The notes: generated by a model from the sequence alone, not told the origin. Counted from the stretch's first letter, positions 37,740 through 52,270 are shown. The stretch: DNA of 64,000 nucleotides from Candidatus Poribacteria bacterium (GCA_963665235.2 CAXXLX010000001.1:2752001-2816000), one strand, 5' to 3'. Translations and numbers: made by a program.

Positions 37740-38375
37740 TCATATAAGAATTTTCTTGTAGACAAAATCCAGCCATCTGTTTTGCGGGGGTATAATTTGC
37801 GGTTTCGGTGAAAGTGGAGTCCAATACGGCTGAAAAATATGCCCCAGATCACTTTTCAATTCCCATATATCTTCCGTTTTCTCTTGTGTGGACATAAGGA
37901 AAAAGTGTCTTTTTTTCTGTGCGCTAAGGTTTTCGTTCGGCACCCACCCCGTAATCTTATAGTCAATGCAGGTGGGATTAAAGTGTTTGTCGTATTCGTA
38001 TTCAGTATATGAAATATGTGTAAAATCTTCTTGTGTAGCACGGTAATCGACGGTAAGTCCCCTGGTTAATTTCCGTTTGTAGGGGATTGCGTTTAAGTCC
38101 GGGTTGATATAAACTTGAGTCGTCTCGGTGATAATTCTTTGGCGTTCACTCAATTCGTTTTCAATACAACCCAGATATTTTTCAATTTTTACGTTCTGTA
38201 ATCCGGTTTCTTCGGCTGTTTCTCGCTGGACGGCTGTTTCGATATCTTCATCCGCTTCAACGGAGCCCGCTGGGATTTGGATGCCTGCGGTGGGGTGTTT
38301 AAAGACGAGCAACATCTTGATACCGTTTCTTTCCTGTGTGATAAAGGCGGAAACCTTTTCAATGGGGTTGTTCAC
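37740..38375 (-). CDS. NUDIX hydrolase
   Basis: Nudix box 'GSVEADEDIETAVQRETAEETGL'. Probable GTG start overlapping the hsdR 3' end (the start is uncertain). Confidence 0.85.
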   Translation of the reverse strand: MNNPIEKVSAFITQERNGIKMLLVFKHPTAGIQIPAGSVEADEDIETAVQRETAEETGLQNVKIEKYLGCIENELSERQRIITETTQVYINPDLNAIPYKRKLTRGLTVDYRATQEDFTHISYTEYEYDKHFNPTCIDYKITGWVPNENLSAQKKRHFFLMSTQEKTEDIWELKSDLGHIFQPYWTPLSPKPQIIPPQNRWLDFVYKKILI

Positions 38376-41300
38376 TATAAACGCTTCTCTCTTCACCATA
38401 GTAAGAATCATAGATATGCTGATAAACTGACTCAGATTTTTGATGGAACAGCTCTCGCGTGTAGCATTCGGGCAGGTCTTCACCAAGTATATTGTCAACG
38501 ACAAGTCTGACTTGTGCGCGTGTTTGTGTCTGTTTACGCCAATCCAAAACCAGCTTCTCTCGCTTGAGCGTCTCAAGCAATTTCCTCACAGTAGTTTTTA
38601 CCTCGTCTCTTTCAGGAACAGTGAGTTGGGGCTCGGGTTGTGTCAACAGATCGAACACCGCCAATTCCTCTTCAGAAAAGTTTTCAGCCTTGGCGCGTTG
38701 GTATTCCTGCTGAAGTTCGCCAGCGAAGTTGAAAAGCCCCTCAACGTAATTATCAATACTAAGAGTGCCTGCGTTGTATTCCGCAATCATCTGCTCAAAT
38801 TTCGTCTGATAATCCATCCGACTTCTGTTGAGGCGAATCATCGCGGCGAGTTCGCTGTTGAGCGCACCTCTGAGCCGTTCCGCCTCAACGCGTTTGTATT
38901 CCGTATTGAATTGTTCGCTTAACTGGTCAAAATCAATTTGGCTTAAATCTATCGGCCCTGTATCGTAGGCATCCGGCGGTACTTGAATGAGATAGGCTTC
39001 AGATGCAATGGACCGGTCGAGTAGGTCCTCTACTTGTGTCATCACCCCGGAGATGTCAGCGGGTGGCGTTAAATTCCTTATTTTCTGTGCGATAATATTG
39101 ATTAGTTGGCAAATTCTGGTAAACGCATACACATCGGGGTCGGGTAGAATCGCTCTGTAGAGTTTCGTGACGTTCGTTGCAAATTGCAGATAACGTTTTT
39201 TGGTTTCATCGTTAATCAGGATGCGTTCCATTAACTGGTTGATGTGACTGACCTTTTGCCAAGTGTCATCCGTTTGGGTTTCTGTCAAGTCAACACCGAG
39301 GCCTTCACAGAATGCGGTGATTTCGATGATTGCCTCTCTAAGTTTTTCAACCAATTCCGACTTATCTGCAATCGGTTTCTTGCCCTCCACATCGGGCCCA
39401 GTTGCATAAATCGCTAACGCCTTTTCAAGATTACGGAAGACCCCGATGTAGTCAACAATCAAACCGTTGTTTTTATCACCGAAGACGCGGTTGGCTCTGG
39501 CGATAGTTTGCATCAAGGTATGGTTTCGCTGCGGTTTGTCCAGATAGATTGTAGAACAGGATGGCACGTCAAAACCTGTAATCCACATTGCACAAAGGAA
39601 AACAATACGGAACGGAGCATCAGGGTCTTTAAATTTGGTCTCTAAATCCTCCGTGTTCATACGCCTGCGGTGCGGCGTGATGTCCACACCCTTTTGACTG
39701 AGGTCATCGATTTCATTTTGTCCCGGAGAAACTACAACCGCCATATCGGTCTCTTCCATGTAATGAATCCTTTCCTCTAAAAAGCCTCGCTTGCTACCGG
39801 TCTGTGTGGTTCGTTCCGATTTTAGACGTTCGGTCTCCCGTTTCCAATGTTTCTGTACCTTATCGTACATCTTGACAGCAGTCGCTTTGTCAATTGAGAT
39901 GACCATCGCTTTCCCCTGATACCCTCTGCCCATAAAGTGCTTAACGATATCTTCGGCGATGGTTTCCAATCGTTCATCACGTGTGATCAGATGATATTCT
40001 CTGGCAAACTCGTGTTCGAGCTTAGCCTCTTGTGCTTCGTCCAGCTCGGCATCTTCAAGAATCTGTTCCATGTCCTCGTTGAAGTTTTCATTTGTCAGTT
40101 GTAAGGCAGGCACACGGTTTTCATAATAGAGCGGGACAGTTGCACCGTCGAGGATAGATTGTTTAAAGTCATAAACGCTTACATAGTCCCCGAACACCGA
40201 TTTTGTTTTTTCTTCACCTGCTATAAGCGGCGTGCCGGTAAATGCAATGAACGCGGCATTGGGGAGCGCGGTACGCATATTCAACGCCAATGTATCGTAT
40301 TGACTGCGGTGCGCCTCATCGGTGATGACGACGATGTCTGACCGCTCCGAGAGAACGGGGTGCCGCTCGCCATCTCGCGTCTGGAACTTGTGAATCAGCG
40401 TAAAGATATAGCGATGGTCTTCACTGAGGAGTTGGCGAAGATGGCGGACACTTTCCGCATGAACTTCTTGCTGCATCAGGACACCACTTGCACTCGCGAA
40501 GGTCTTATAGATTTGATTGTCCAACTCCTTCCGATCGGTTACGACAACGAATGTCCAGTTTCCCGGTAGTTTTCTAAGCACCTTCTGTGCAAAGAGGAGC
40601 ATAGAGATACTTTTCCCGCTGCCCTGTGTATGCCAAAACACACCAAGTTTGCCTCGGTTATCTTCAATCTCCTTTAGCGATTGGATTGTGTTGTTGACAC
40701 CGAGGTATTGATGATTTTTGGCGAGAATTTTGACGGAGCCCCCTTGTGCTTCCATAAACAGGATAAAGTTCTCAACAACATCAAGTAATCTTTGGTGTTC
40801 ACAAAGTACCTGCAGCATCGTTGCCAAAGAGGCTTCGGGGGTTTCATCTTCACGATGCCTCCGCTTCCATTCAGCAAAGTGTTCCCAACTTGCTGTGAGG
40901 CTACCAACCTTACTGTCTGTGCCATTAGATAGGATAATGAAGCCGTTGTACCAGAAAAGGTGAGGGATTGTGTCTTTGTAGTCGCGGAGGTTGCCGTTAT
41001 AAGCCGCGTAGAGGTTCACGTCAATCCGTTTGAATTCCATCAGGACAAGTGGAAGCCCGTTGACGAAACAGACGAGGTCCGGACGTTTGGTATACATGTC
41101 ACCGGTAATCGAGAATTGCGATGCTGCGAAGAAATCATTATTCTCCGGCTGTTCCCAGTCTATAACCTGAAGGACTTCAACGGATTCAGCTTCAGCATTG
41201 GGCTCGGTTATAACCACCGTCACACCATCTTTCAGAAGACTATAAATCTCGCGATTGGCTTCAACAAGACTCATAGATTTGCGGGAGCGGGTGAGCTCTT

Positions 41301-41523
41301 CAATCGCAGCAGCGATGGCCTCCTGCGTCGCTTCAGGATTGAGCCGTTCCAATGCGGACTGAAGTCTGGCGGTTAGCACAACTTCGGATTTGGTTTCCCT
41401 ACCGACCGGACTTTCATCGCCGTGACTGAATTCGCTATAGCAGTTTCGCGTCTCCCACCCCATTTCTGCTAGCAGTGCAATTGCGGGTTGTTCTATGAGT
41501 TCATCTTCGCTGTATGCGTTCAT
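38359..41523 (-). CDS. hsdR: Type I restriction enzyme subunit R
   Basis: 'RPDLV.FVNGLPLV.MEFK', 'WHTQGSGKS', 'DEAHRSQY', 'FTGTP', 'TGFDVP', 'QTIARANR' and a DUF3387-like C-terminus. Confidence 0.97.
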   Translation of the reverse strand: MNAYSEDELIEQPAIALLAEMGWETRNCYSEFSHGDESPVGRETKSEVVLTARLQSALERLNPEATQEAIAAAIEELTRSRKSMSLVEANREIYSLLKDGVTVVITEPNAEAESVEVLQVIDWEQPENNDFFAASQFSITGDMYTKRPDLVCFVNGLPLVLMEFKRIDVNLYAAYNGNLRDYKDTIPHLFWYNGFIILSNGTDSKVGSLTASWEHFAEWKRRHREDETPEASLATMLQVLCEHQRLLDVVENFILFMEAQGGSVKILAKNHQYLGVNNTIQSLKEIEDNRGKLGVFWHTQGSGKSISMLLFAQKVLRKLPGNWTFVVVTDRKELDNQIYKTFASASGVLMQQEVHAESVRHLRQLLSEDHRYIFTLIHKFQTRDGERHPVLSERSDIVVITDEAHRSQYDTLALNMRTALPNAAFIAFTGTPLIAGEEKTKSVFGDYVSVYDFKQSILDGATVPLYYENRVPALQLTNENFNEDMEQILEDAELDEAQEAKLEHEFAREYHLITRDERLETIAEDIVKHFMGRGYQGKAMVISIDKATAVKMYDKVQKHWKRETERLKSERTTQTGSKRGFLEERIHYMEETDMAVVVSPGQNEIDDLSQKGVDITPHRRRMNTEDLETKFKDPDAPFRIVFLCAMWITGFDVPSCSTIYLDKPQRNHTLMQTIARANRVFGDKNNGLIVDYIGVFRNLEKALAIYATGPDVEGKKPIADKSELVEKLREAIIEITAFCEGLGVDLTETQTDDTWQKVSHINQLMERILINDETKKRYLQFATNVTKLYRAILPDPDVYAFTRICQLINIIAQKIRNLTPPADISGVMTQVEDLLDRSIASEAYLIQVPPDAYDTGPIDLSQIDFDQLSEQFNTEYKRVEAERLRGALNSELAAMIRLNRSRMDYQTKFEQMIAEYNAGTLSIDNYVEGLFNFAGELQQEYQRAKAENFSEEELAVFDLLTQPEPQLTVPERDEVKTTVRKLLETLKREKLVLDWRKQTQTRAQVRLVVDNILGEDLPECYTRELFHQKSESVYQHIYDSYYGEERSVYSEQPH

Positions 41524-41633
41524 TTGTTCCGATTAGATTGCAGCTCTACCAACTGCTCGCGCTCAGCTTTGGGCAGTTGATGTATGAGTGATAATAGTTT
41601 TTCGAGGGTTATCGGTTCAGAAATTTGAATCAT
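41520..41633 (-). CDS. 37-aa mini-ORF translationally coupled to hsdR (MIQISEPITLEKLLSLIHQLPKAEREQLVELQSNRNK)
   Basis: GGAGG RBS. Its TGA overlaps the hsdR ATG (ATGA). Not in the supplied ORF track. Confidence 0.5.
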   Translation of the reverse strand: MIQISEPITLEKLLSLIHQLPKAEREQLVELQSNRNK

Positions 41634-41664
41634 TGCAATTTACCCTCCAAGAAGTTATCGGTTT

Positions 41665-42207
41665 TCAGGCGCGTTCACGCCTCACCTCTGCAAGTGCTTC
41701 CTCAAAATCACGTATTACCTCTTCCTCTGGCGTATCAGCAAACTTAGCGTGGAAATAGGCAAGGGTTTTATCCCACTCCTCCCGAAACTTTTTGCGCTCA
41801 CTCTCAACTTCGGTGCGGAAGCGCGAAACGATGTTCTGCCACTGCGTTGGTGTACCAGATTCGCCTTTCTGAATATCGGGTGCGAAAAACACCTTGTCAG
41901 ACAAATTACAATCTTTGACGATTCGTTTAACCTCACTAACAATAGGTTTTGACACATCCTGTCGTTGCTGATCGGAATCAACGATAAAAATAATATAGCT
42001 ATCTTGCTTGAGATAATGCCCAATTGCCTTCCTTAGGCTGCTGCTTATAAGTGTGCCTTTTCTATGGCACTTGCGAAGTGTACTTCTTCCGGCTGTTCGG
42101 ATACCGATATCCCCAACCTGTCTCAATCTGATAAATTCATTTTCCAAAAACTTGACTGCTTTGGCATCACAATCCGATAGTAAATTCCAAACTCGGACGC
42201 TTAGCAT
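41665..42207 (-). CDS. TOPRIM-like (DUF4276-like) hypothetical protein with helical acidic tail, paralogue 2
   Basis: GGAGGAG RBS before ATG 42207. 'YIIFIVDSD'. Aligns by eye with 42228-42776. Confidence 0.6.
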   Translation of the reverse strand: MLSVRVWNLLSDCDAKAVKFLENEFIRLRQVGDIGIRTAGRSTLRKCHRKGTLISSSLRKAIGHYLKQDSYIIFIVDSDQQRQDVSKPIVSEVKRIVKDCNLSDKVFFAPDIQKGESGTPTQWQNIVSRFRTEVESERKKFREEWDKTLAYFHAKFADTPEEEVIRDFEEALAEVRRERA

Positions 42208-42227
42208 ACTGGCTCCTCCGTAAACAA

Positions 42228-42776
42228 CTACCGGGTGCATTCACGATCCTCGTGGATGAGATCGTCAACAAAATTTTCACGCTCGGTTTCAGTCATCGTG
42301 TCCCAATCTAAACCGCGCGAGGCACATAATTGTCGAAACCGCGTTTCGGCGTAAACCATACGTTTTGCTCGAGCGGGCTCTTCAATTCCCAGATGCACTT
42401 GCCACAACCGCGCTTCAAGTTCCGGAACCCCCAGCGCGAAAAACACTTTGCCCGCAAAGCTGGGGTCCGCAACAATCTGTTTAATCTGTTTAACAAGTGC
42501 TCCCGACTTTTGTAGTTGAGTCCCGTTCGGCACAGACTCTTGACTGTTAGCTATGAAAATAACGTAGTCATCTTGCTTGAGGTAATGCCGTACTGCCTTT
42601 TTCAGGTTGCCATTCAAAGATTCGACGCTCACATTAGGCATCGGGAACGCTTTGCTGCCAGCTGTTTGAATAGACAGATTACCGAGTTTCAAGTCTGTCG
42701 CTAAACGATTTCCCAAAGATTTAAGAACTTTAGCATCGTAATTAGATTCCACAGTCCAAATTCTTATGTTTGTCAT
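42228..42776 (-). CDS. TOPRIM-like (DUF4276-like) hypothetical protein with helical acidic tail, paralogue 1
   Basis: 'IWTVESNYDAK', 'GVPELEARL'. ATGA overlap with the upstream ATPase. Confidence 0.6.
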   Translation of the reverse strand: MTNIRIWTVESNYDAKVLKSLGNRLATDLKLGNLSIQTAGSKAFPMPNVSVESLNGNLKKAVRHYLKQDDYVIFIANSQESVPNGTQLQKSGALVKQIKQIVADPSFAGKVFFALGVPELEARLWQVHLGIEEPARAKRMVYAETRFRQLCASRGLDWDTMTETERENFVDDLIHEDRECTR

Positions 42777-43945
42777 CCTGGTTCCTCCATTAAATCTTGT
42801 AGAAGTTCACTATGGAAAATGGCACTGCCGATTCCGAAATCCGCTATCCACCCCTCAAGTGCCTCACGTTTCTTACGGATATCCTCAAGGTTGAGGACTT
42901 CGGTGCCAAGTCCGGGGCGGTTGCGTAGAAGTAGAACGCCAAGCCAATCGGATAAATGCTCGGAGCTGAAGGTGTCAAGGAGTTGGGAACTATGCGTTGT
43001 AATTATCACCTGCGTTCGTTCCGCAAGACGCTCAAGTATGTACGCAATATCCTTCAGTGCCCCAGGGTGTAAACTTCGCTCCGGTTCCTCAATGGCAATC
43101 AGTGGCGGTAATTCAGATTGATTGAGTAAGGTGTTATATGCAAGAAGACGCGCTGTTCCATCAGAAGCAGCAAGTAAAGGTATTGGCTCCTTGTATCCTT
43201 CCAGAAGGCAGAGTTGGGATTCGCCATCAATTTTACGATAGTCTATATTGATATTCGTGGCAGCGGCTAAGGCTGCACTAACAGATCGGAAATCCTCTGG
43301 CGAATTCTCATACCACTCTCCGAGGATGGCCGGTACCCCTCCCCCATAACGATTAAGTTTTGGCAATTCAGGGATATTTTTTATACCAGAAAAAGTTCTA
43401 TCAGAATTAGTTCGTATGTAGCTTGGTTCAAAGTCATAAAATTCCCATCCTTGAATAAACTCTGTTAGCGCGCTCGTAACGGGTTTATGTCCATAATCAC
43501 CGGCAGATCTCAAAGCGAGTTTATTGGATGTGTATCTCGTTTCATTCTTACCATCTTCATCCTGAACTTGTCCTTCTCCATCCTGAATTGAGATGACTTT
43601 GACACTGTTAACCAATAATTCTTCGCCAACAGAAAGATCTTCATCTTTAGCTTTGAACACCAATGTATATTGCGCTAATTTCTCCTTCACTTTGGCGTGT
43701 AGTTCGTAGGTGATGTGGTCGGCTCCACCTGCCCAAAGGCGATCTCTGAGAAAATTCGCATGTGTAGGAGGGGTTTCAACACTCAGGATCCCTTTGAAAA
43801 GGTGTAATGTGTTCAAAGTATTTGATTTCCCACTTGCATTAGGACCAACAAGAATCGTCAGAGGCCTCAGGGGAAGCGTAATATTCCGCAAGCTCATATA
43901 GTTTTTGATATGAACTTTCTCTAAGAAGGATTTCACTTCAGACAT
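42773..43945 (-). CDS. ABC-type AAA_21 ATPase
   Basis: 'LVGPNASGKSN', 'ASDGT', 'IAIEEPERSLHP', 'ITTHS'. Confidence 0.9.
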   Translation of the reverse strand: MSEVKSFLEKVHIKNYMSLRNITLPLRPLTILVGPNASGKSNTLNTLHLFKGILSVETPPTHANFLRDRLWAGGADHITYELHAKVKEKLAQYTLVFKAKDEDLSVGEELLVNSVKVISIQDGEGQVQDEDGKNETRYTSNKLALRSAGDYGHKPVTSALTEFIQGWEFYDFEPSYIRTNSDRTFSGIKNIPELPKLNRYGGGVPAILGEWYENSPEDFRSVSAALAAATNINIDYRKIDGESQLCLLEGYKEPIPLLAASDGTARLLAYNTLLNQSELPPLIAIEEPERSLHPGALKDIAYILERLAERTQVIITTHSSQLLDTFSSEHLSDWLGVLLLRNRPGLGTEVLNLEDIRKKREALEGWIADFGIGSAIFHSELLQDLMEEPG

Positions 43946-44135: not shown

Positions 44136-44501
44136 CTAATTTGGTATAGGTCTCTGTCGGATGTCATCTTCATCGTGAACAACAAAGAGGTGTCCTGTCC
44201 AATCTGCTCGACTTTCAACTGCGTTGATTATGATTTGTGCTACCTCCGAAGGTAAACGGTTATCACGTCGGACACGAAACAGAATAACGCCGAAAGGGGC
44301 TTTTAACTTGTCGCGAAAGACTAAATCACCGAAGTCCTTGTCGTATGTGAGGAGAATTCGTCCTTCGGCTGTGGCACGAGAAAGCACCATTTGGTCATCA
44401 ATCCCAGGCGTTTCTTCCTCTATCCACACGAGGTCATGACCACGCGAACGAAGCATTCCTACTTCTAATCTGTTGAAGTTTTCATCTGCTAACAGACGCA
44501 C
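44136..44501 (-). CDS. DUF5615 family PIN-like protein (putative toxin)
   Basis: 'MRLLADEN', 'GHD', 'GIDD..VL..A..EGRILLT.DKDFGDL', 'GVILFR'. Confidence 0.9.
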   Translation of the reverse strand: MRLLADENFNRLEVGMLRSRGHDLVWIEEETPGIDDQMVLSRATAEGRILLTYDKDFGDLVFRDKLKAPFGVILFRVRRDNRLPSEVAQIIINAVESRADWTGHLFVVHDEDDIRQRPIPN

Positions 44502-45909
44502 GTGTCACCTTTTCTTGATACGTGCGACACGCCTCAATGTCCTCACGTGCAACGTTTGGGTAATTTTCAATAACTTCTTCCTCACTCCACCCCTGTTTCA
44601 GCAAGTCAAGGATAAACGCAACAGCTAAACGGGTCCCTTTGATAACAGGTTTGCCACCGAGTATCTTTTCGTCAGCATGTAAACGCTCTGTGAGCGGGTA
44701 TGGAATGTGTGTCCCGCCTTTTATGGGCTGCATTCCATCCACGTTAATGTCAAGTTCAGATACGTCAATCTCCCCAGAGATGAGTTGCGGGAGAAGTAGG
44801 TCTCGGGTTTGGCGGAGGTTTTGATTTCTTTGTTTAAGACTTTCCGTTTTTTGAAATATGCCAGTGGTGAAATCAGAGAATCGTTCACTTGTTTCAGAGT
44901 CAGCAACTGCAACTACTTTATTGTTAAGTTCTGTCCAGTACCGCTTGTATTCTCTTGTTTCAACAAGATTAAAAATTAAAAAAAATAAATATCCGACCGG
45001 CGTTTTATCTTTGGCGATAAAAGGGACTACGTTGGGGCCAAGAGAGAAAGGAGCAACCATTAATTGCATCTTACAAGTATGATCCCCAAAAATCACAATT
45101 GGGTCTTTTGGAGACGCATTGTGATCTGGTTCATTATCATGAAAACCTAAAAAGTCTGCACGAGACTGGTCAACCACAATAATCTTACCTGTTTGATCAA
45201 CATCAATCTCTCTATATGTTTTACCTGCTTTTAGACGTTTAACTATCTCTTTTACCTCCTTTACCTCCCATCCCTCTGGTATCGGTCCCAACGGTGATTC
45301 TACCATCGAGACATTCTCATGCCCCGGAAATCGGAAGTGGACGAACCATTCTCGGTAGAGGGTTTGTGCCATATCCTCAAGGATTTTGATGCGGCGGGTG
45401 TTGTTTGCAATCAGGTTGTCGTAAGCAGAGAGGACAGCGGCGATTTTGCGTTGGGTTTGAAGAGGAGGCACACACACCTCAAGGTTTGCAAACGTCGACT
45501 TTTTTACTATCGGAACTGCAACACCGGCAGCGATATTTTTCAGAACCGCTGTTTTGGTGCTAAGAAGGTAATAGACAAAGTATGGATCGTGCTTTCGTTG
45601 ATCCACTACAACGCTGTTGATTTGCTGATTTGTTACGCTGGGAACGGTTGTCATGCAAATTTTACCGATACTTGCAATGCAGACGACACAAACAGCATTA
45701 CAAGGAAGCAAGCGATTCTTATTGTATTCATATCCTTTCTGTGATAGAAATCGTTTGGTATGAACAAGGCGAGAATCTATTTCTATATCAGTTGGAGTGA
45801 TAAAAGGATACTTATTGCCGTAATACTCTGTTTTTTTAGTGGGCGGCGTAGACCCTGTGATTATTTGTCCCAAGTCATTGATAGTTACATTCCGCCATGT
45901 ATTCATCAT
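44482..45909 (-). CDS. hsdS: Type I RM specificity subunit S fused to a C-terminal DUF433 antitoxin domain
   Basis: Two TRDs with conserved regions 'PPLQTQRKIAAVLSAYD.LI..N.RRI..LE' and 'TRDLLLPQLISGEIDV', followed in-frame by 'ILGGKPVIKGTRLAV..ILDLL..GWS.EEV..NYP...EDI.AC'. Confidence 0.9.
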   Translation of the reverse strand: MMNTWRNVTINDLGQIITGSTPPTKKTEYYGNKYPFITPTDIEIDSRLVHTKRFLSQKGYEYNKNRLLPCNAVCVVCIASIGKICMTTVPSVTNQQINSVVVDQRKHDPYFVYYLLSTKTAVLKNIAAGVAVPIVKKSTFANLEVCVPPLQTQRKIAAVLSAYDNLIANNTRRIKILEDMAQTLYREWFVHFRFPGHENVSMVESPLGPIPEGWEVKEVKEIVKRLKAGKTYREIDVDQTGKIIVVDQSRADFLGFHDNEPDHNASPKDPIVIFGDHTCKMQLMVAPFSLGPNVVPFIAKDKTPVGYLFFLIFNLVETREYKRYWTELNNKVVAVADSETSERFSDFTTGIFQKTESLKQRNQNLRQTRDLLLPQLISGEIDVSELDINVDGMQPIKGGTHIPYPLTERLHADEKILGGKPVIKGTRLAVAFILDLLKQGWSEEEVIENYPNVAREDIEACRTYQEKVTRASVSR

Positions 45910-45936: not shown

Positions 45937-46989
45937 TCATGGGTTATTAACTTCTATCATATTTAGGTTATGCTCTGCAAAGAATTTTTTGAGATCGTCA
46001 GTGTATTCGGAAATTGGATCTTGATCGACTATGCGAAACAATTCGCGACCAACCCGGGAAAGTGCTACCCCTGACACCCTAAACTCAGGTTTATTATCCC
46101 AATCTGGCGAGGGAAATAAAGCCCAGAACTTGCCTTGGTGTTGAAAAGGCGAAGGAATTGGATTGTCTTCATATACTATGCACGAGTTGTAGTCATACAG
46201 AGAGCACAATTTGTAGTCAGGCAGAGGAATGTCCCCCGAAAAAATTAGATTGTATTCGTTTAATATATTAAGTTGATCGAGGCCTAATCCATATTTGCTG
46301 AGAGCATTAGATCCAAGACTGCTCCCTAAAGGCAGAACTCTAGCATCAATAACGAGTTCGCTGTTTGGAATTCTGAAAGGCCCAATGACTACACATACTG
46401 AACAGAATCTTTTGAACAAAGCAGCAGTATTTTGATCGAGCTCACCGAGAAGGTTTACAGCCTTAATTGAATACGAGCCCGGTTGCCTAATTTCGCCTGC
46501 CAAGATACGACCGAAACGAAGCTGCATCTCTTCAGTGCTTTTTTTCCGCGCTTCTGTATCGAAACTGTTAAGCCAATCGTCGTCGATTACCCTTTCCTCA
46601 CGACTATCTGTCCCCTGATTTGGCGAATCAGTAGATTGCCCTTCATTAGGGGCACTTGCACCTTGATTTGTTAAACTATCAGGTTCCCCGTTTTTAAGCT
46701 CATTTGCAGCAATAGCGGAAATTTTATCAAGATTGAGCTGCTCCCGAATTATTTTTTCTGCGAATTTGTGGCCTGCTCTCAACGCATATTCCGGGTCAAC
46801 TTGTATCTGTTGAACAATTTGGGCGGTAATCTCTTCCCTAATTTTAATGCGGGCTTCCGATTCTGCTCGTTTTTCGGCGGATCTCCGTTCAAGAGCTCCA
46901 ACTGGTACATCAATTAAAGCGGAGCAAAGTCGGTCGAAAGCCTTAAATGCGTTTCGCCTGATTGGGGCAGGGATAGTTGAATCTAACAC
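45937..46989 (-). CDS. DUF2806 domain-containing protein
   Basis: 'REQLNLDKI', 'IDDDWLN.F...A...STEEMQ..FGRILAGEI.QPGSYS'. The 5' end may be frameshifted (see findings). Confidence 0.8.
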   Translation of the reverse strand: MLDSTIPAPIRRNAFKAFDRLCSALIDVPVGALERRSAEKRAESEARIKIREEITAQIVQQIQVDPEYALRAGHKFAEKIIREQLNLDKISAIAANELKNGEPDSLTNQGASAPNEGQSTDSPNQGTDSREERVIDDDWLNSFDTEARKKSTEEMQLRFGRILAGEIRQPGSYSIKAVNLLGELDQNTAALFKRFCSVCVVIGPFRIPNSELVIDARVLPLGSSLGSNALSKYGLGLDQLNILNEYNLIFSGDIPLPDYKLCSLYDYNSCIVYEDNPIPSPFQHQGKFWALFPSPDWDNKPEFRVSGVALSRVGRELFRIVDQDPISEYTDDLKKFFAEHNLNMIEVNNP

Positions 46990-47097
46990 AACATCAGTGA
47001 CAACGTCAAGTGCTGTGTGTGCTTCATCCTCAGTTGTTGAATGTAAATCAGGTTTTTTTGTCAGGCATTATGAAATCCTTTTTTTGATAGACGCGCT

Positions 47098-47301
47098 CTA
47101 TTTTGTTATAGATATGTTAATACATTTAACTTGCTCATCCTCAATTGGTGTCAAGTTGTGACGTAATTTAAGACTGACCTGAATTTCCACTTCTTCGGTT
47201 TCGTCCCAATAATCGGCGAGGTCATGCGTGTCCCAAAATTCGCCGATCTCCTCTGGTGTTGCATCGGGAGGCGGCATTGGGTCTCGTTTTTTGTTTTTCA
47301 T
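47098..47301 (-). CDS. CopG/BrnA-like antitoxin N-terminal protein (orphan, possibly truncated)
   Basis: 'EEIGEFWDTHDLADYWDETEEVEI' pattern. No adjacent toxin gene. Confidence 0.6.
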   Translation of the reverse strand: MKNKKRDPMPPPDATPEEIGEFWDTHDLADYWDETEEVEIQVSLKLRHNLTPIEDEQVKCINISITK

Positions 47302-47464
47302 ATTTTCATTATACCATGTTTTCCAGAATCTTTGCCAGATTGTTGCAATGTCTGGGGGTGCAAAGTTTTTGACAATCAGACCCCACCTCTTTTGTAGAAG
47401 GCGTTCAACCTCGATAGCACAGCAATGATTTCACAGTAGTCGGATTACCGATAGCCTTATCTAT

Positions 47465-47722
47465 CTATGTATCCAACCCTTGTAAGAAGGTTTCGAAGTT
47501 AGGTGTTTTCATAGCAGTGCGCAGGAGTTGCTGTAGGCGTTCCATGTCGTGAATAGTTTGTAGTCGCTGTTTTGCGGCCTCGGTGTCACTATTCGGAAAT
47601 CGCTCTGTGAGTAGCAGCAGGATATTTTCGATGGTGTTCTCGCGCGCACCTTGTTCGATACCTTGTTCGATACCTTGTTCGAAGCCTCGTTCAAGTAGTT
47701 CTTCAGCCATTGTTCGTGCCAT
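47465..47722 (-). CDS. Stand-alone copy of the Rpn C-terminal small protein (RpnS-like)
   Basis: Nearly identical to 47766-48059, with its own GGAGGAGGT RBS and 3 rather than 6 EQG repeats. Confidence 0.75.
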   Translation of the reverse strand: MARTMAEELLERGFEQGIEQGIEQGARENTIENILLLLTERFPNSDTEAAKQRLQTIHDMERLQQLLRTAMKTPNFETFLQGLDT

Positions 47723-47765
47723 GGGGTCTACCTCCTCCACTCGGATTACCGATAGTCTTGTCTAT

Positions 47766-48881
47766 CTATGTATCCAACCCTTGTAAGAAGGTTTCGAAGT
47801 TAGGTGTTTTCATAGCAGTGCGCAGGAGTTGCTGTAGGCGTTCCATGTCGTAAATAGTTTGTAGTCGCTGTTTTGCGGCCTCGGTGTCACTATTCGGAAA
47901 TCGCTCTGTGAGTAGCAGCAGGATATTTTCGATGGTGTTCTCGCGCGCACCTTGTTCGATACCTTGTTCGATACCTTGTTCGATACCTTGTTCGATACCT
48001 TGTTCGATACCTTGTTCGAAGCCTCGTTCAAGTAGTTCTTCAGCCATTGTTCGTGCCATGGGGTCTACCTCCACATTGTTTGTATGTCTGTCTACTAACC
48101 TTATCAATTCTTCGTGTTCCTCTGGGGAGCGGCGATGCAGGATAAGATCAAGGATATAACCGATTGCCTCACGCTTCTGTGCTGACTGTGCCTCAGGCAG
48201 TGCACCAAAGTGAATTAACGCCTCGATGAGAGCGTCGCGTATTTCCGCAGAGTCCGCTTTCTCTTTCTGTAGCACTGTGAGAATCCATCCTAACGGATGC
48301 GCTGTCTTTGTGAGGGTTGCCGCCTCTGTTTCTTTGACGCTGAGAAACAACGTGTCAAATTGTGGAACGAAACGTTCAAGCTCTTTGGGAAGGTCCATGA
48401 TAGCTTGTAGTGTCAGCGGGGTGTTCCATCGCCGGTCGCCTGTATAAAAGACTATCGGCAGAATTGGAGACAATCGCTGTTTATTTTTGGGAACATTGTC
48501 CGTTTTCCATCCTCTGCGTTGTTGGTCCCATATCAGCATCATGTAAAGCAGGAGGCGAAATCCCATCTCATCATCCACTGTCGATTGATGTTCAAGTAGG
48601 ATATAGATGAGTAGTTCGTCCGAATGCTCCTCTGTTTTAAAAGGTGCACGGAACAGCACGTCCGCTTCCCGTTCCTGTAGGATTTCAGAAATCAAATCAG
48701 GGTTGAGCGGGACGAGTTTGTTAAAATCTATAAGTTGCGCGAGGTCGTTAGCGATGATTTCTATCAGCCCGCGTATATTTTCCTTGTTTTGAAACAGGTG
48801 TCGGATACTCCTGTCAGGAAAGCGTCCGAGCTGTCTATTAAGAAAATCGCGGACCTTCTTCTCTTTTGTTTCTACTGTCAT
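47766..48881 (-). CDS. Rpn family recombination-promoting nuclease/putative transposase (PD-(D/E)XK, YhgA-like)
   Basis: 'EREADVLF', 'IYILLEHQS..D..M.FRLL.Y', 'PILPIVFYTG...W', then 'MAEELLERG.EQG' repeats. Confidence 0.9.
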   Translation of the reverse strand: MTVETKEKKVRDFLNRQLGRFPDRSIRHLFQNKENIRGLIEIIANDLAQLIDFNKLVPLNPDLISEILQEREADVLFRAPFKTEEHSDELLIYILLEHQSTVDDEMGFRLLLYMMLIWDQQRRGWKTDNVPKNKQRLSPILPIVFYTGDRRWNTPLTLQAIMDLPKELERFVPQFDTLFLSVKETEAATLTKTAHPLGWILTVLQKEKADSAEIRDALIEALIHFGALPEAQSAQKREAIGYILDLILHRRSPEEHEELIRLVDRHTNNVEVDPMARTMAEELLERGFEQGIEQGIEQGIEQGIEQGIEQGARENTIENILLLLTERFPNSDTEAAKQRLQTIYDMERLQQLLRTAMKTPNFETFLQGLDT

Positions 48882-49059: not shown

Positions 49060-50628
49060 TTATACCCTATTTTCCAAAATCTTTGCAACATTCTCTGCAA
49101 TCCGCTCCTCTAACTGACGTGCCTCAGCGTTCAGATTCTCCAATTCTTCATTGAGTTTTCCGAATTGTTCTGTGAAGTCAAAATCGTCCGCGGTTTGCGT
49201 AGCGACACCGACATAACGTCCAGGGTTTAGGCTCCAACCTTGTGCTTCAATATCGGCAACGGCCGCCATTTTGCAAAGCCCGGGAACATCAATATATTCT
49301 GCATCGGGGAACTTTGTAGCGAGAAAATCCGAGCTGTCGTGTCGGTTTTCAGGAGATTCAGCTCGGTAGAGCCTAACAATATTGGCGAGGAATTCCAGCT
49401 GAAGCGGGGTGAATTGCCGATGCGCTCGGCTCACTTGTTGATAAAGGTGTCGGGCATCAATGAACAACACTTTATCGGCTCTTTCCGTATCCCGTTTAGC
49501 TTTGTCGAAAAACCAGAGGGTACACGGTAAAGTAACAGTATAGAAGAAATTTGAGGCTATGCTAACAATAACATCCACCGCGCCGGTCTCAATAAGCTGC
49601 TTACGAATTTGTAGTTCAGAGGCGCGTGCATCCGCAGCAGAGTTCGCCATGACAAACCCCGCGCGACCTGTCTCCAAAAGCGAACTATAAAAGAGTTGTA
49701 TCCAGAGGTAATTGGCGTTATCTACGCGAGGCATGCCGAACGGAAATCGCGGGTCATCTTTGAGCCGTTCCCTATCTACACGGTCCACATTGAAGGGTGG
49801 ATTTGCCATGACAAAGTCGAACCTCCCTAGACAGTTATGCGGGTCTTCGTAGTAGCTATTCGCCTGCTTTATATCCCCCTCCAGACCGTGTACCGCGAGG
49901 TTCATTTTACATAATCTGATAGTCTCCGCGACGCGTTCCACGCCGTAGATGCTAATGTTGTCACCCTGTTTTCCGTTTTGCTGGTGGTTACGAATGAATT
50001 CTGCACTTTGGACAAACATGCCGCCAGAGCCGCATGCAGGGTCAAGGATACGTCCATGAAAGGGTTGTAGAATTTCAACGATCAGTTTAACGAGTGAGGT
50101 TGGCGTGAAAAACTCACCCCCCCGTTGTCCTTCACTCATAGCAAAGTTGCCGAGGAAGTACTCATAGACCTTTCCGAAGGCATCCCCTTCAATATCCATC
50201 GGAATCTGTTGCATGATGCGGAGGAGTTCAAAGAGGGTACGTTTTTCGAGTTGATTGTAATTTTTGGGCAGCACCCCTTGAACCTGACTGTTTTCAGCTT
50301 CGATTGCGCGCATTGCGGCAGTGATAGCTTGCCCAATGTTCGCACTTTCCGGCAAATTGAGGAGATGCTGAAATCGCGCTTCCTCTGGTAGGTAAAAGAT
50401 ACCGCGTGCTTGGTATTGTATCTTTTTATCTGTTCGCCGTCGCGTGTTAGGGGACGATTCGCGTTCAAATTCGCGTTCCGCCTCTGTAAATTTATGGTCG
50501 GCGTATTTCAAGAAGATGAGCCCGAGTACCGGTGTTGAGTACTCCGATGCTTTAAGCTTTGAATTAGCTCTGAGTTCATCAGCAGCGTGCCACAGTTTGT
50601 TTTCTATGTCGGTTAGGTTTGTGTTCAT
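49060..50628 (-). CDS. hsdM: Type I RM DNA methyltransferase subunit M
   Basis: '[11 protein letters not shown]', 'LGLIFLKY', 'GEFFTP', '[10 protein letters not shown]', 'MANPPFN', 'WSLNPGRYV'. Confidence 0.97.
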
Positions 50629-50657
50629 AATGTTCACTAAATTAGGAGGCAAAAGGA

Positions 50658-51116
50658 TTACCGGACAGAATCAACTCTCAACATAGAGTCGGGTCCTCTG
50701 ATACCATTTTGTGCCAATGTCCGCCGATATTTACCCCTTTTCACGTTTGATCCAGTTTTCCCACTGGAAATCCAGTGATAAGTACTGTGATGTTTTAAAT
50801 CTTCAAGAGGTTTTGCTACGTTTTTGCGCCACTGTTTTAGCCACTTTAATTTCGCGATGATGTTTTTTACTTCGCCAGCGCTTCCGGCGGGATGGATTTC
50901 GATATAGTAAACCCTATCTTTATAACCGAATACATAATCCCAACGGGGGTCATTCGGATAACGCTCGGCGACGCAGGCGTCGATATCGACACTGCCTTTT
51001 AATTCAGGAGTCTCAGGGACTTCTATCTTTCTACTATTTCTTTTTAATGCCTGTAACCCATGTCTGAGACACTCAGCAATTTCATGCGTATTCTGAACAG
51101 CATCTGTAAAACTCAC
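50658..51116 (-). CDS. Hypothetical protein, possible restriction-endonuclease-like fold
   Basis: 'PRWDYVFGY....YYIEIHP' resembles a (P)D...ExK variant. GTGA overlap with the upstream ATPase. Confidence 0.55.
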
Positions 51117-52270
51117 GAATCACTCTCCCATACCGCTTTTGTGACAACATCCGCTGCCTTCGTGCTAAAGTGTGTGAGACCGCCCCAATCCGATATGGCT
51201 TCATCGGAATCTTCCGGATCCAAAGTTGAAATGTCTTTGACATTCACAACACTATCTTGCCGAGAGAAGTAATAGGTTTTGAATGTCTTTTCGGATAGGA
51301 CTGTTTTCACGAGCTTATTAGAAAAAGCATTGGGTTCCAAATCCAACAATTGCCTTAACCGTTTTGGTGCTTCTTTTGATTTCGCAATGAGCGGGATTGC
51401 CCATACCAATTCCAGCATTTGTGCCGAGTGTGTAGAAATAATGACTTTATAGTCTCGCCGCAAAAGTTCCATGAAAATTAGGAGGAGGGTTGAGATTGCT
51501 TTCGGATGTAGTCCCATTTCCGGTTCTTCAATAACAACCCAGTTTATACTGTTTCTCTTTTGTGCTCTCTTTGAAGGCATTAATCGATACAGTCCGAGTA
51601 AGAGCGGTGTGAATTCTCTTTGTCCGGTTGACCAGGTCATGAACGGCAATTGACTGCCCGCAACATCTAAAACGACGCGTTTACGCAATGTAGTTTTATC
51701 CAGTTTGACTTCGGCACCGCCAAAGACGTTTTCCCCGAGCGCGTCCCGGAGTGTCTTATTCATGCGACCTTCCTGCGGAAAAATAGCCCCTTTACTTGTG
51801 CCTAACCCAGCTTCCATAAGTAGACGCAACTTCTCGCTGAACTCTTTAACAACGTATGGGTCGCTACTTGTATAGTCTGTAAAAGCGCGAGGCCAGCCAT
51901 CTTTGAGCGTTATCACCCGGTGTGCGGGAATTAGAAAGAGGGATTCCGCTCTTTTCCTCCCTCTTTTGGACAGTGCTTCTGATAGTGTGAAATCTTGTTC
52001 ATCAGCGATAATTTTTATTCCGGTGGGTTTCCAAATCCCTTGCATTCCCTCACCGAAGTAGAGCGACAAAAAATTTTCGCTATTTCCGTGCCACTCGTAC
52101 CCGTGTTTTTTGAGGGTTTGGGTAATATCGCCGGTATCCAAAATTAATTTCACAAGCTGGAGCAGGATGCTTTTCCCACTCGCTTGTTCACCGACGAAGA
52201 TAGTCATATCGCCGAAGGTAATATCAGCTTCGCGGATTTGTCCGAGTGAACTTAATGTAAGCCGTTTCAT
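51113..52270 (-). CDS. ABC-type AAA ATPase (AAA_15/AAA_21)
   Basis: 'FVGEQASGKS', 'WSTGQRE', 'VIEEPEMGLHP', 'ISTHS'. Confidence 0.9.
   Translation of the reverse strand: MKRLTLSSLGQIREADITFGDMTIFVGEQASGKSILLQLVKLILDTGDITQTLKKHGYEWHGNSENFLSLYFGEGMQGIWKPTGIKIIADEQDFTLSEALSKRGRKRAESLFLIPAHRVITLKDGWPRAFTDYTSSDPYVVKEFSEKLRLLMEAGLGTSKGAIFPQEGRMNKTLRDALGENVFGGAEVKLDKTTLRKRVVLDVAGSQLPFMTWSTGQREFTPLLLGLYRLMPSKRAQKRNSINWVVIEEPEMGLHPKAISTLLLIFMELLRRDYKVIISTHSAQMLELVWAIPLIAKSKEAPKRLRQLLDLEPNAFSNKLVKTVLSEKTFKTYYFSRQDSVVNVKDISTLDPEDSDEAISDWGGLTHFSTKAADVVTKAVWESDS

Follow-up and report, generated by a model that had tools for sequence, protein, structure and literature searches.

The locus described here raises the question of what an ABC ATPase gene and two small paralogous genes, P1 and P2, are doing within a type I hsdM/S/R operon, and whether the two small proteins, each of which has kept a different part of a TOPRIM-like acidic site, belong to one effector. 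It lies in a 64,000-nucleotide stretch of DNA (the window); the source of this restriction-enzyme operon is a sponge bacterium, a symbiont. A sequence-only reading of the window had noted the ATPase and its two followers of about 180 amino acids and proposed a system with a heteromeric, split or decoy effector. Every gene of the locus is on the (-) strand, and the features, from the upstream end, are these:

44482-45909 (-), hsdS fused to DUF433 (Pfam Methylase_S 1.6e-31, DUF433 1.6e-21)
44136-44501 (-), DUF5615 PIN-like gene (Pfam DUF5615 2.2e-23)
42773-43945 (-), ABC ATPase, 390 aa, HEC-01A / MAD3-like (Pfam, PADLOC)
42228-42776 (-), P1, 182 aa, TOPRIM-like N-domain plus antitoxin-type tail
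42220..42240 (-), PIN toxin gene reduced to its opening 7 codons, MHPVVVY (nucleotide identity to 5' ends of the P1-linked PIN gene, PIN1)
42208..42219 (-), 3'-terminal 12 nt left over from the deletion of a second ATPase gene (nucleotide identity to ATPase/P2 junctions)
41665-42207 (-), P2, 180 aa, divergent TOPRIM-like N-domain plus a second antitoxin-type tail
41634..41689 (-), scar left by PIN2, the PIN gene linked to P2 (nucleotide comparison with five related loci)
41520..41633 (-), 37-codon ORF, truncated UPF0175-type gene (own GGAGG; N-terminus common to relatives)
38359-41523 (-), hsdR, 1054 aa, closing the string at its downstream end (Pfam HSDR_N, SWI2_SNF2, T1RH-like_C)

The positions of hsdS, the DUF5615 gene and hsdR thus place ATPase-P1-P2 between hsdS and hsdR, as had been claimed, with one small gene, that for the DUF5615 PIN-like protein, separating hsdS from the ATPase. 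The hsdS::DUF433 and DUF5615 genes (44136..45909) are the upstream boundary, a separate toxin-antitoxin-like pair. The remaining order, ATPase-P1-P2-small ORF-hsdR, is tightly packed, with two 4-nt ATGA overlaps, one between the ATPase stop and the P1 ATG and one between the 37-codon ORF stop and the hsdR start. The ORF between P2 and hsdR and the two short gene stubs had been absent from the sequence-only reading. PrrC, an ABC ATPase fused to an anticodon-nuclease domain, also lies between hsdS and hsdR, and the published account, in the part available, describes its position as embedded in restriction-modification systems; the likeness is one of position only, as the window's 390-aa ATPase has ABC domains alone (Pfam, PADLOC).

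The ATPase matches AAA_21 (Pfam 3.6e-26) and AAA_15 (4.8e-22), and its Walker A, Walker B-like IAIEEPE and TTHS loop are invariant in 40 homologues. Its best PADLOC match, at the top of 126 families matched, is HEC-01A; six HEC-01A models match it, with E from 5.3e-41 to 1.2e-28. The AriA models (7.6e-26) are weaker than HEC-01A, PADLOC mad3 matches at 3.8e-21, and NCBIfam MADS3 (NF047739) gives 80.5 bits (E 1.3e-22), far short of its equivalog cut-off of 420 bits. These matches support its membership in the HEC-01A / MAD3 / OLD-type ABC group. HEC-01 is a PADLOC candidate system of an ABC ATPase, HEC-01A, and a TOPRIM/DUF4276 protein, HEC-01B; when its authors assayed it, the system did not confer defence (Payne et al., bioRxiv 10.1101/2024.01.29.577857). 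The window resembles that portrayal in the best match of its ATPase and in having a two-gene ATPase/small-protein unit inside a larger restriction-type system. Elsewhere in the source genome three canonical HEC-01 pairs lie in tandem, and such pairs are frequent across Poribacteria.

BLASTP shows P1 and P2 to be homologous (34% identity over 122 aa, E 1e-22); P1 has 52 homologues and P2 has 317. P1 has its TOPRIM-like N-domain at about residues 1-125 and its tail at about residues 131-182 (42231-42386); in P2 these parts lie at about residues 1-118 and 126-180 (41668-41832). The P2 ORF opens at 42240, but translation almost certainly begins at the ATG at 42207, since GGAGG lies 7 nt upstream of it and the homologues are mostly 180 aa long (187-aa forms are second). 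The AF2 models (pLDDT 82.5 for P1, whose core is beta-alpha x4 and whose tail is helical, and 83.6 for P2) show four strand-helix units, which describes their succession and not the order of the strands; E10 ends strand 1, positions 77-79 end strand 3, and the ELE motif follows strand 4. The motifs are as previously quoted: VESNYD and IANSQ in P1, with E10 kept and N77-S-Q79 instead of DxD, and LLSDCD and IVDSD in P2, with L10 instead of the Glu and D77-S-D79 kept. The dN/dS values, 0.22-0.42 for P1 and 0.17-0.31 for P2, indicate purifying selection on both; they are not near 1, so neither gene is decaying neutrally; neutral decay, together with single intact genes in homologous loci, was among the outcomes that the sequence-only reading had said would refute it.

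Neither P1 nor P2 is matched by any model of Pfam, NCBIfam or PADLOC (0 PADLOC families at E <= 0.01), nor by DUF4435 / AriB models, and DUF4276 (PF14103) gives nothing even at E <= 10. The matches listed by Foldseek and VIA-align (best Z 8.0 and 8.6) are all alpha/beta folds of a generic kind, with no TOPRIM protein among them. The link runs instead through relatives without a tail, which are 50% identical to P1 (E 1.5e-34) and which have sub-threshold matches to HEC-01B (2e-06), mad4 (2.2e-05) and DUF4276 (9.4e-06). DUF4276 is matched by 40 of the 106 family members at E <= 0.01 (best 3.5e-06), and the relatives' scores of 20-26.4 bits lie below its Pfam gathering cut-off of 30.2 bits. Aligned to canonical DUF4276 with hhalign, the tail-less relatives reach 82% probability (E 1.1e-05, over only 23 columns), the P1 family 18% and the P2 family 0.5%; canonical Poribacteria DUF4276 proteins, for their part, match HEC-01B at 2.5e-75 and 3.5e-82. 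Solely through this homology chain are P1 and P2 supported as kin of the DUF4276 / HEC-01B / MAD4 TOPRIM-like proteins.

The tail-less relatives keep E10, D14, D77 and D79 in 36 of 36 cases. In the P1 family (n=39) E10 is found in 38, D14 in 22, D77 in 33 and D79 in 18, and in the P2 family (n=118) position 10 is Q in 55, E in 42 and L in 15 members, and the ELE motif is absent; the site is eroded as well in the K-type and UPF0175-tailed forms. Judged from these alignments, the six-residue acidic site is eroded independently in all four tailed lineages, and neither P1 nor P2 of the window has the conserved catalytic Glu together with DxD. D12, D14, D77, D79 and D111 are nevertheless kept in 86-99% of the P2 family, and an R37/R41/R45/C47/H48 patch is nearly invariant, so P2 might still be an enzyme or nucleic-acid binder and not a passive adaptor.

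These counts bear on the mildest form of the earlier idea, a working HEC-01 / MAD3-MAD4-like nuclease in which an ATPase dimer carries one P1 and one P2 and the tails are dimerisation or regulatory helices. All three reading frames are unbroken and closely coupled, purifying selection acts on them, and P1 retains E10, D14, E119 and E121 while P2 retains D12, D14, D77 and D79; in TOPRIM enzymes, however, the Glu and DxD sit in one domain (PMC12065111), and nothing points to an inter-subunit site. Modest reductions of DNA cleavage in the MAD4 point mutants D55A and D81A (PMC13662399, in the portion available) would lend a partial site some plausibility, yet the reciprocal pattern is missing in L009, a locus that holds both P1 and P2 and whose P2 has both motifs. 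In five loci the ATPase, an intact tail-less TOPRIM-like gene and P2 are consecutive, with PIN2 missing in all five; the order ATPase-P1-P2, on the other hand, occurs in 0 of 59 related loci, and in the window it is best read as the product of a deletion (below). We therefore consider such a mixed nuclease unlikely, and the reciprocal motif loss does not survive as a designed split site.

The tails had been likened to small antitoxins, and they are indeed homologous to genuine stand-alone antitoxins beside PIN toxins, which also argues against the mixed nuclease. In L053 the P2 tail forms the C-terminal half of a 78-aa stand-alone antitoxin whose gene overlaps one for a PIN_3 protein (PIN2), and it is also found on an unrelated 373-aa protein that PIN2 follows. 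The P1 tail occurs in 79-aa ORFs, in a Phd/YefM fusion or in P1 itself; a stand-alone antitoxin encoded in the source genome, its gene overlapping one for a PIN_3 protein, matches this tail with 68% identity over 50 aa. PIN1 follows P1-type tails in L008, L010, L012, L039 and L049, and among 64 metagenome loci P1-tail-like modules adjoin PIN genes in 42. A third tail type, UPF0175 (2.3e-11), is followed by a PIN-like PDC-S70 gene. PIN1 and PIN2 are both PIN_3 proteins (Pfam 7.3e-17 and 2.8e-20), and neither matches a PADLOC model.

In the 59 related loci, 57 of them with Poribacteria in the record title, the usual unit is the ATPase, a single small protein of the P2 type and then an overlapping PIN_3 toxin gene. 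The ATPase is directly upstream of the small gene in 41 loci, and PIN2 overlaps the stop of the P2-tail proteins in 25 of 41. Such cassettes are almost confined to Poribacteria in the collections searched. In the window neither P1 nor P2 is followed by a whole PIN gene, and just 7-codon stubs of both PIN genes are left; the same genome has one PIN1 homologue, about 305 kb away and with its own antitoxin, and PIN2 was not found anywhere in the source assembly (92.6% complete).

Could P1 and P2 then be free orphan antitoxins (anti-addiction or cross-neutralising), unlinked to the ATPase, with the N-domain a mere antitoxin N-terminal module? The same tails do sit on unrelated N-terminal modules, and L049 has P1 and PIN1 without an ATPase gene, but remnants of an ATPase 3' end precede P1 even there, as in L009 and L039. 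In the loci examined the P2 ATG lies within the last ATPase codons, and there is one natural in-frame ATPase::P2 fusion; these, and the 41 loci with the ATPase immediately upstream, speak for a real link. The PIN1 toxin elsewhere in the source genome could be a target for P1, but that genome offers no PIN2 for P2 to neutralise, and we regard this explanation as very doubtful. The P2 tail has a median dN/dS of 0.153 in loci without PIN2 and 0.171 in loci with it; given this equal constraint and a genome without PIN2, it may serve more than toxin binding, a constraint without PIN2 that the mixed nuclease would also accommodate. Much of this constraint signal may date from before the PIN2 losses.

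How the present order came about can be read at several places. Between P1 and P2 a PIN1 stub of seven codons overlaps the P1 stop, like the intact PIN genes of relatives, and 15-19 of its 21 nt are identical to PIN1 5' ends (L008, L039, L049, L010, L012 and the copy in its own genome). It abuts 12 nt of an ATPase 3' end, upstream of P2; these 12 nt with the first 9 nt of P2 match, at 17-20 of 21 nt, the junctions of ten single-cassette loci (the junction compared being ATPase 3' end / P2 start). From its sequence, the 12-nt remnant is now the Shine-Dalgarno region of P2. With the scar visible in the assembled sequence, the ATPase-P1-P2 adjacency is best read as having arisen by deletion. The window P2 is the sister of the L001 P2 and the window ATPase groups elsewhere, which is consistent with loss of P2's own ATPase. 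The second place, 41634..41689, was compared with L001 and L003, where PIN2 is present, and with L013, L018 and L004, where PIN2 is absent and the junction is different. It contains the first 7 codons of PIN2 and then TAA, overlapping the P2 stop, and a few bases like the PIN2 3' end immediately before the small ORF. The N-terminus of the 37-codon ORF heads a 104-aa protein in L003, L013 and L018 (a 126-aa ORF in L018); in relatives this protein has a UPF0175 domain (Pfam 2.4e-12) and likewise abuts hsdR.

The loss of PIN1, PIN2, an ATPase gene and the UPF0175 domain, marked by three deletion scars, might mean that ATPase, P1 and P2 have been functionless since toxin loss and have simply not yet accrued disabling mutations. 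Three acidic positions of the window P1 have residues that only a minority of its 39 relatives have (N12, 2 relatives; N77, 6; Q79, 12), but N77/Q79 are also present in the closest P1 relative (82% identical), and so are not private lesions. Many ATPase genes in related loci are partial or missing (L004, L008, L010, L017, L020); here, on the other hand, 2.3 kb have neither frameshift nor stop, the deletion preserved the ribosome-binding site and start of P2 exactly, and PIN2 has been lost at least twice independently with P2 left intact. A dead remnant is accordingly improbable.

We favor, with a probability of about 0.6, a reading in which the window holds the remains of two tandem ATPase / TOPRIM-like::antitoxin / PIN cassettes, here disarmed; that figure includes the adaptor and gating scheme below. 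A complete cassette would encode a HEC-01A / MAD3-type ABC ATPase, a small TOPRIM-like protein with a VapB-like toxin-binding tail in place of the C-terminal helical domain, and, from an overlapping gene, a PIN_3 (VapC-like) toxin, in two lineages, P1 with PIN1 and P2 with PIN2. One deletion would have fused PIN1 codon 7 to the second ATPase gene 12 nt short of that gene's end, another removed PIN2, and a third truncated the UPF0175 gene upstream of hsdR. Docking, gating and present function we infer: the TOPRIM-like N-domains would sit on the ATPase dimer in the manner of MAD4 on MAD3 (2:2), the tails would keep the PIN RNase inactive, and a trigger sensed by the ATPase would release the toxin and arrest the infected cell. 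Because the acidic site is eroded in every tailed lineage, the TOPRIM-like domain would be an adaptor and not a nuclease. That a catalytically dead TOPRIM-derived adaptor tethers a VapB-like tail to a HEC-01-type ATPase, so that a sensor embedded in the restriction-modification system gates PIN RNase release, is a tentative proposal with somewhat less than an even chance. With no adjacent toxin, and no PIN2 in the assembly, the window's module is probably a disarmed, antitoxin-only derivative; it is possibly still an ATPase-bound complex with both P1 and P2, and the PIN1 homologue about 305 kb off could still be a binding partner of its P1.

The known systems each share a part of this arrangement. 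VapBC-type pairs are type II toxin-antitoxin systems in which the usual antitoxin N-domain binds DNA; as in these, the antitoxin gene ends within the start of the PIN toxin gene and the tails are those of ordinary small antitoxins, whereas here a TOPRIM-like domain takes the place of the DNA-binding one, the gene is translationally coupled to an ABC ATPase, and the window has no remaining toxin gene. The tail-less relatives weakly match HEC-01B, unlike P1 and P2, which match no HEC-01B model, have exchanged the helical domain for antitoxin tails and have an eroded acidic site; moreover, relatives add a PIN toxin gene, and in the window a single ATPase is followed by a pair of small genes. MAD3-MAD4 of the Pseudomonas aeruginosa MADS system, described in the available part of PMC13662399 as a 2:2 complex, likewise pairs an ABC ATPase with a DUF4276 TOPRIM-like partner, and by analogy could be a template for the seating of P1 and P2, but MAD4, in that account, has the intact acidic pocket and helical domain that both P1 and P2 lack, and the MADS3 score is well below the equivalog level. 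In HEC-03 the partner of the ABC ATPase is a VapC-like PIN protein, both genes being needed for defence (bioRxiv 10.1101/2024.01.29.577857), and this system is similar in having a PIN RNase as the likely effector within a defence locus; there the pairing is direct, with no antitoxin-like part described in the portion of the report available, whereas here a TOPRIM-derived protein with a VapB-like tail stands between ATPase and PIN. In PARIS, according to the available part of PMC11464382, the ABC ATPase AriA restrains toxic AriB (a DUF4435 TOPRIM protein) and frees it upon sensing a phage protein; the restrained partner and the anti-restriction link fit the present setting, but there AriB acts as the toxin, whereas in the present cassettes the TOPRIM-like part looks non-catalytic and any toxin is encoded separately, as a PIN protein.

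If the tentative proposal of a gating adaptor is true, Poribacteria would have a novel tripartite defence or addiction module, and an evolutionary bridge from ATPase-nuclease systems (HEC-01 / MAD3-4 / PARIS) to classical toxin-antitoxin pairs. Its effector would have been exchanged on at least three occasions (two PIN_3 types, and the UPF0175-linked PIN-like gene), and the window would be a natural disarmed variant with one ATPase for two different antitoxin-bearing adaptors.

The ABC ATPase and the two small paralogous proteins that follow it, P1 and P2, lie in a string of minus-strand genes bounded by hsdM and hsdR, as follows:

49060-50652, minus: hsdM, the first gene in the reading direction, followed by passenger genes
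45937-48881, minus: the stretch of passenger genes between hsdM and hsdS
44482-45909, minus: hsdS, fused to a DUF433 domain
44136-44501, minus: DUF5615 PIN-like gene
42773-43945, minus: ABC ATPase of 390 aa, with AAA_21/AAA_15 matches
42228-42776, minus: P1, 182 aa, whose own ATG overlaps the ATPase stop
start most likely at 42207, minus: P2 (the first ATG of the ORF is at 42240)
41520-41633, minus: ORF of 37 codons between P2 and hsdR
38359-41523, minus: hsdR, the last gene of the string

The more downstream start is preferred for P2 because GGAGG lies 7 nt upstream of it and because its homologues are mostly 180 aa long, with 187-aa forms next. Among defence models the ATPase is matched best by HEC-01A (5.3e-41), with AriA, AbiLi, mad3, Old and GajA behind. 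P1 and P2 are homologues of each other, with 34% identity over 122 aa (E 1e-22), and the ATPase, the paralogues and the motifs quoted for them in the sequence-only reading are all present.

Several neighbours deserve mention in their own right. The hsdM-hsdS interval holds a DUF2806 gene (45937-46989, minus) that recurs at the same place in many related loci, a CopG-like small ORF (47098-47301, minus), and an Rpn/YhgA-like Transposase_31 gene with an (EQGI)n repeat (47766-48881, minus), which is followed by a truncated duplicate of its own C-terminus (47465-47740, minus). The C-terminal DUF433 domain of hsdS is antitoxin-like and the hsdS gene overlaps the DUF5615 PIN-like gene (together 44136-45909, minus), so one half of a toxin-antitoxin-like pair is joined to the specificity subunit; similar fusions are found in the related loci L002, L003 and L024. 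Directly upstream of hsdM is a second ABC-ATPase module (50658-52270, minus), a 385-aa ATPase with a 152-aa partner, which matches the PADLOC candidate PDC-M56A/B (3.8e-158 and 3.5e-48).

A collection of 5.8 billion proteins holds 52 homologues of P1 and 317 of P2; of 1.84 billion cluster representatives, no more than 116 are matched by a profile built from the group as a whole. The related loci, from a scan with one genome taken for each species, number 59, of which 57 are titled Poribacteria and two "uncultured bacterium". No model in Pfam, NCBIfam or PADLOC is matched by P1 or by P2. The group also includes tail-less proteins of 235–246 aa with a helical C-domain, one of which is 50% identical to P1 over 131 aa (E 1.5e-34), and these have sub-threshold matches to DUF4276 (9.4e-06), HEC-01B (2e-06) and mad4 (2.2e-05), and also to RloB. 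Among 106 aligned family members, DUF4276 is matched at E <= 0.01 by 40, RloB by seven and Toprim by one. Aligned with hhalign to canonical Poribacteria DUF4276, 36 tail-less members reached 82% probability, confined to the ELEAW motif, the P1 family 18% and the P2 family 0.5%. DUF4276 and RloB have been placed in the TOPRIM superfamily (PMC12065111), and MAD4, itself of the DUF4276 family, is described as containing a TOPRIM-like domain (PMC13662399). AF2 models of P1 and P2 (pLDDT 82.5 and 83.6) have a core of four strand-helix units followed by two long helices, and the acidic positions fall where strands 1 and 3 end and past strand 4. Foldseek against the PDB and VIA-align against 48,161 chains listed for both proteins nothing but three-layer alpha/beta folds of a generic kind, namely flavodoxin-like, GTPase, Argonaute MID and racemase types (Z up to 8.0 and 8.6), with no TOPRIM entry among the matches listed. 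A PDB sequence search with a mixed family profile gave chance-level matches only, in a copy in which the canonical DUF4276 profile finds no DUF4276/MAD4 chain, and for P2 a search of the ESM Atlas brought no usable match. Because homology can be chained from protein to protein, and motifs and predicted topology agree with it, "TOPRIM-like" is a reasonable label for P1 and P2, short of proof by fold match.

The C-terminal tails of both proteins are antitoxin modules. The P2 tail (residues about 126–180) is the C-terminal half of a 78-aa stand-alone protein whose gene, at unrelated loci, overlaps a PIN_3 toxin gene (2.4e-20); it is also found at the C-terminus of an unrelated 373-aa protein, and the same PIN gene then follows. 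In the restriction-modification loci the corresponding toxin gene is PIN2, which is 58–66% identical to the PIN gene of the stand-alone tail loci (PIN_3, 2.8e-20) and which, at 25 of 41 loci, overlaps the stop of the gene for the P2-tail protein. The P1 tail is found on P1, in a fusion with Phd/YefM, or by itself as an ORF of 79 aa, and a different overlapping PIN_3 gene, PIN1 (7.3e-17), follows it in L008, L010, L012, L039 and L049. A metagenome scan found the P1-type tail at 64 loci, with a PIN gene directly downstream in 42 and room for one in 57. The same scan made with the P1 family yielded tail-only matches and no further full-length P1, and therefore the original ATPase-P1-PIN1 cassette is seen intact nowhere. 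In a third tail type the domain is UPF0175 (2.3e-11), and the gene that comes next is PIN-like and listed by PADLOC under PDC-S70. P2 variants with this tail lie at about 7001-8223 in L035, L036, L038 and L039; the 147–163-aa PIN-like gene after them (read in L035, L038 and L039, with the PDC-S70 match in L035) abuts hsdR, with a 4-nt overlap in L035 and L038. This pairing counts as the third effector swap seen on one scaffold. The earlier impression that the tails resemble small antitoxins is thus borne out by stand-alone homologues that overlap PIN genes. The unit that recurs is therefore an ATPase, followed by a TOPRIM-like protein bearing an antitoxin tail and by a PIN toxin.

Retention of the acidic sites differs among the members of the family.

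Members retaining each acidic residue (positions in P1 numbering)
Tail-less proteins (n=36): E10 36, D14 36, D77 36, D79 36, E119 36, E121 36 (positions 119 and 121 partly fixed by the selection pattern, the other four unbiased)
P1 family (n=39): E10 38, D14 22, D77 33, D79 18, E119 34, E121 29
P2 family (n=118): E10 42 (Q 55, L 15), D14 104, D77 109, D79 101, ELE motif absent
Lysine-10 type (n=5): E10 2, D14 4, D77 5, D79 1, E119 5, E121 1
UPF0175-tailed type (n=4): E10 3, D14 4, D77 0, D79 3, E119 4, E121 0

Loss of the predicted catalytic site accompanies the antitoxin tails, and the pair in the window, P1 without DxD and P2 without the Glu, is one outcome of a general erosion. The sequence-only reading had taken this reciprocal loss as a possible sign of a heteromeric, split or decoy effector; the generality of the erosion speaks against that, as does L009, which has both proteins and whose P2 keeps both motifs. 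The P2 family keeps D12, D14, D77, D79 and D111 and a basic/Cys-His patch very well, and to judge from this conservation may retain a residual binding or enzymatic role.

How the two proteins came to be neighbours can be read in part from the junctions. When the recurrence of the twin arrangement was surveyed, the order ATPase-P1-P2 was found in none of the 59 loci. Two TOPRIM-like genes in a row occur at five other loci; in each of these a tail-less protein, intact, comes first and PIN2 is absent. P1 and P2 co-occur in L009 and L039, flanking the ATPase on either side. A recent tandem duplication is ruled out, as P1 and P2 lie on opposite sides of the deepest split in the N-domain tree, which separates the P2 clade from the tail-less, P1 and lysine-type proteins (100/100). 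In the trees the window's P2 is sister to that of L001, where PIN2 is still present, and the window's ATPase groups with other loci; the trees agree with an old P1/P2 split. Two pieces make up the 33 nt from the P1 stop region to the P2 ATG. One is the initial seven codons of PIN1 (MHPVVVY), which agree with real PIN1 starts at 15–19 of 21 nt; the other, 12 nt, taken with the first 9 nt of P2, matches the junction of the ATPase 3' end and P2 in single-cassette loci at 17–20 of 21 nt. Since a PIN1 stub is joined here to an ATPase 3' end before P2, a deletion appears to have removed PIN1 and a second ATPase gene. In the short Logan contigs of four sequencing runs no exact piece among the matches listed spans 42224-42236, so that the junction is neither confirmed nor contradicted by them; no RNA run was among the runs listed for this sequence. 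Upstream of P1 in L009, L039 and L049, too, there are remnants of an ATPase 3' end; P1 apparently once had its own ATPase there, as it still has in the window.

What follows the P2 stop in the window is the first seven codons of PIN2, a TAA and vestiges of the 3' end of PIN2. The junction is different in relatives that lack PIN2, L013 and L018 among them, and therefore PIN2 has been lost at least twice. The ORF of 37 codons corresponds to the N-terminus of a UPF0175 protein of 104 aa (a 126-aa ORF in L018) that precedes hsdR in L003, L013 and L018; this internally deleted gene has its own Shine-Dalgarno and its stop overlaps the hsdR start (ATGA), and it may now serve only translational coupling into hsdR. 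In L002, L009, L010, L012, L016, L028 and L038, fragments of a DUF4351-like (EQGI)n-repeat protein, similar to the C-terminal end of the Rpn-like gene in the window, lie between the P1-tail/PIN1 genes and the ATPase, upstream of the latter; they may mark recombination hot spots.

The surviving genes are under constraint. Neutral decay, considered in the sequence-only reading, would give dN/dS near 1; pairwise values are 0.22–0.42 for P1 and 0.17–0.31 for P2. The idea of a simply non-functional P2 is rejected in view of its 317 homologues (about 70–83% identity among the 120 matches listed) and dN/dS around 0.2. The P2 tail is equally constrained in PIN2-less and PIN2-bearing loci (0.153 versus 0.171), although much of this history of constraint may predate the PIN2 losses. 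The window's own genome (92.6% complete) contains no PIN2 homologue and no further copies of P1 or P2. It has one PIN1 homologue at G000:C1:3120619-3121020, 62% identical and about 305 kb away, whose own antitoxin has a tail 68% identical to that of P1. Outside the window the same genome carries three tandem pairs of ATPase (411–416 aa) and canonical DUF4276 protein (199 aa) at G000:C1:2623.6-2629.3 kb (locus L141); these DUF4276 proteins score 41.9–51.4 bits, over the Pfam cut-off. PF14103 exceeds its cut-off in 124 of the 151 genomes of the phylum searched.

The sequences themselves show the architecture, the homologies, the scars and the selection; the proposed mechanism is modelled on MAD3-MAD4, HEC-03 and PARIS. 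MAD3-MAD4 is reported to be a 2:2 complex, with MAD4 insoluble alone (PMC13662399); HEC-03 defence is reported to need both an ABC ATPase and a VapC-like PIN (bioRxiv 10.1101/2024.01.29.577857); and the PARIS ATPase is described as holding and then releasing a toxic partner (PMC11464382). By analogy, the N-domains would dock on an ATPase dimer, the tails would keep the PIN RNase silent, and the ATPase would sense a trigger upon which the RNase is freed. A physical association of ATPase and small protein is supported by a single natural in-frame ATPase::P2 fusion, by the start of the small gene inside the ATPase stop where the junction was read, and by adjacency to the ATPase in 41 loci. As it stands in the window, the module has been disarmed; it may survive as a complex of antitoxins only, in which P1 possibly covers the distant PIN1, or alternatively as a sensor with some other output.

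HEC-01 is the closest catalogued system. The locus's own proteins fail the HEC-01B, DUF4276 and MAD3-equivalog tests, and the locus is better regarded as a variant within the ABC-ATPase/TOPRIM kind than as a member of that system. Among the papers listed for DUF4276, HEC-01, MAD4 and ABC ATPase/antitoxin/PIN/TOPRIM, no title or abstract opening names such a fusion; the supplements of the HEC-01 preprint (bioRxiv 10.1101/2024.01.29.577857) might list related candidates.

ABC ATPase and TOPRIM pairs (HEC-01, MAD3-MAD4, PARIS, OLD) are widespread. For HEC-01 the sole published test is reported to have found no defence (bioRxiv 10.1101/2024.01.29.577857). The Poribacteria loci suggest a testable wiring in which the TOPRIM partner can lose catalysis and become an adaptor with an antitoxin tail, the PIN RNase being the real effector; if true, this would link ATPase-gated nucleases with toxin-antitoxin pairs. 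The window shows a repeated purging of toxin genes, with persistence of the ATPase and the antitoxin-bearing proteins, which bears on the turnover of defence islands inside restriction operons.
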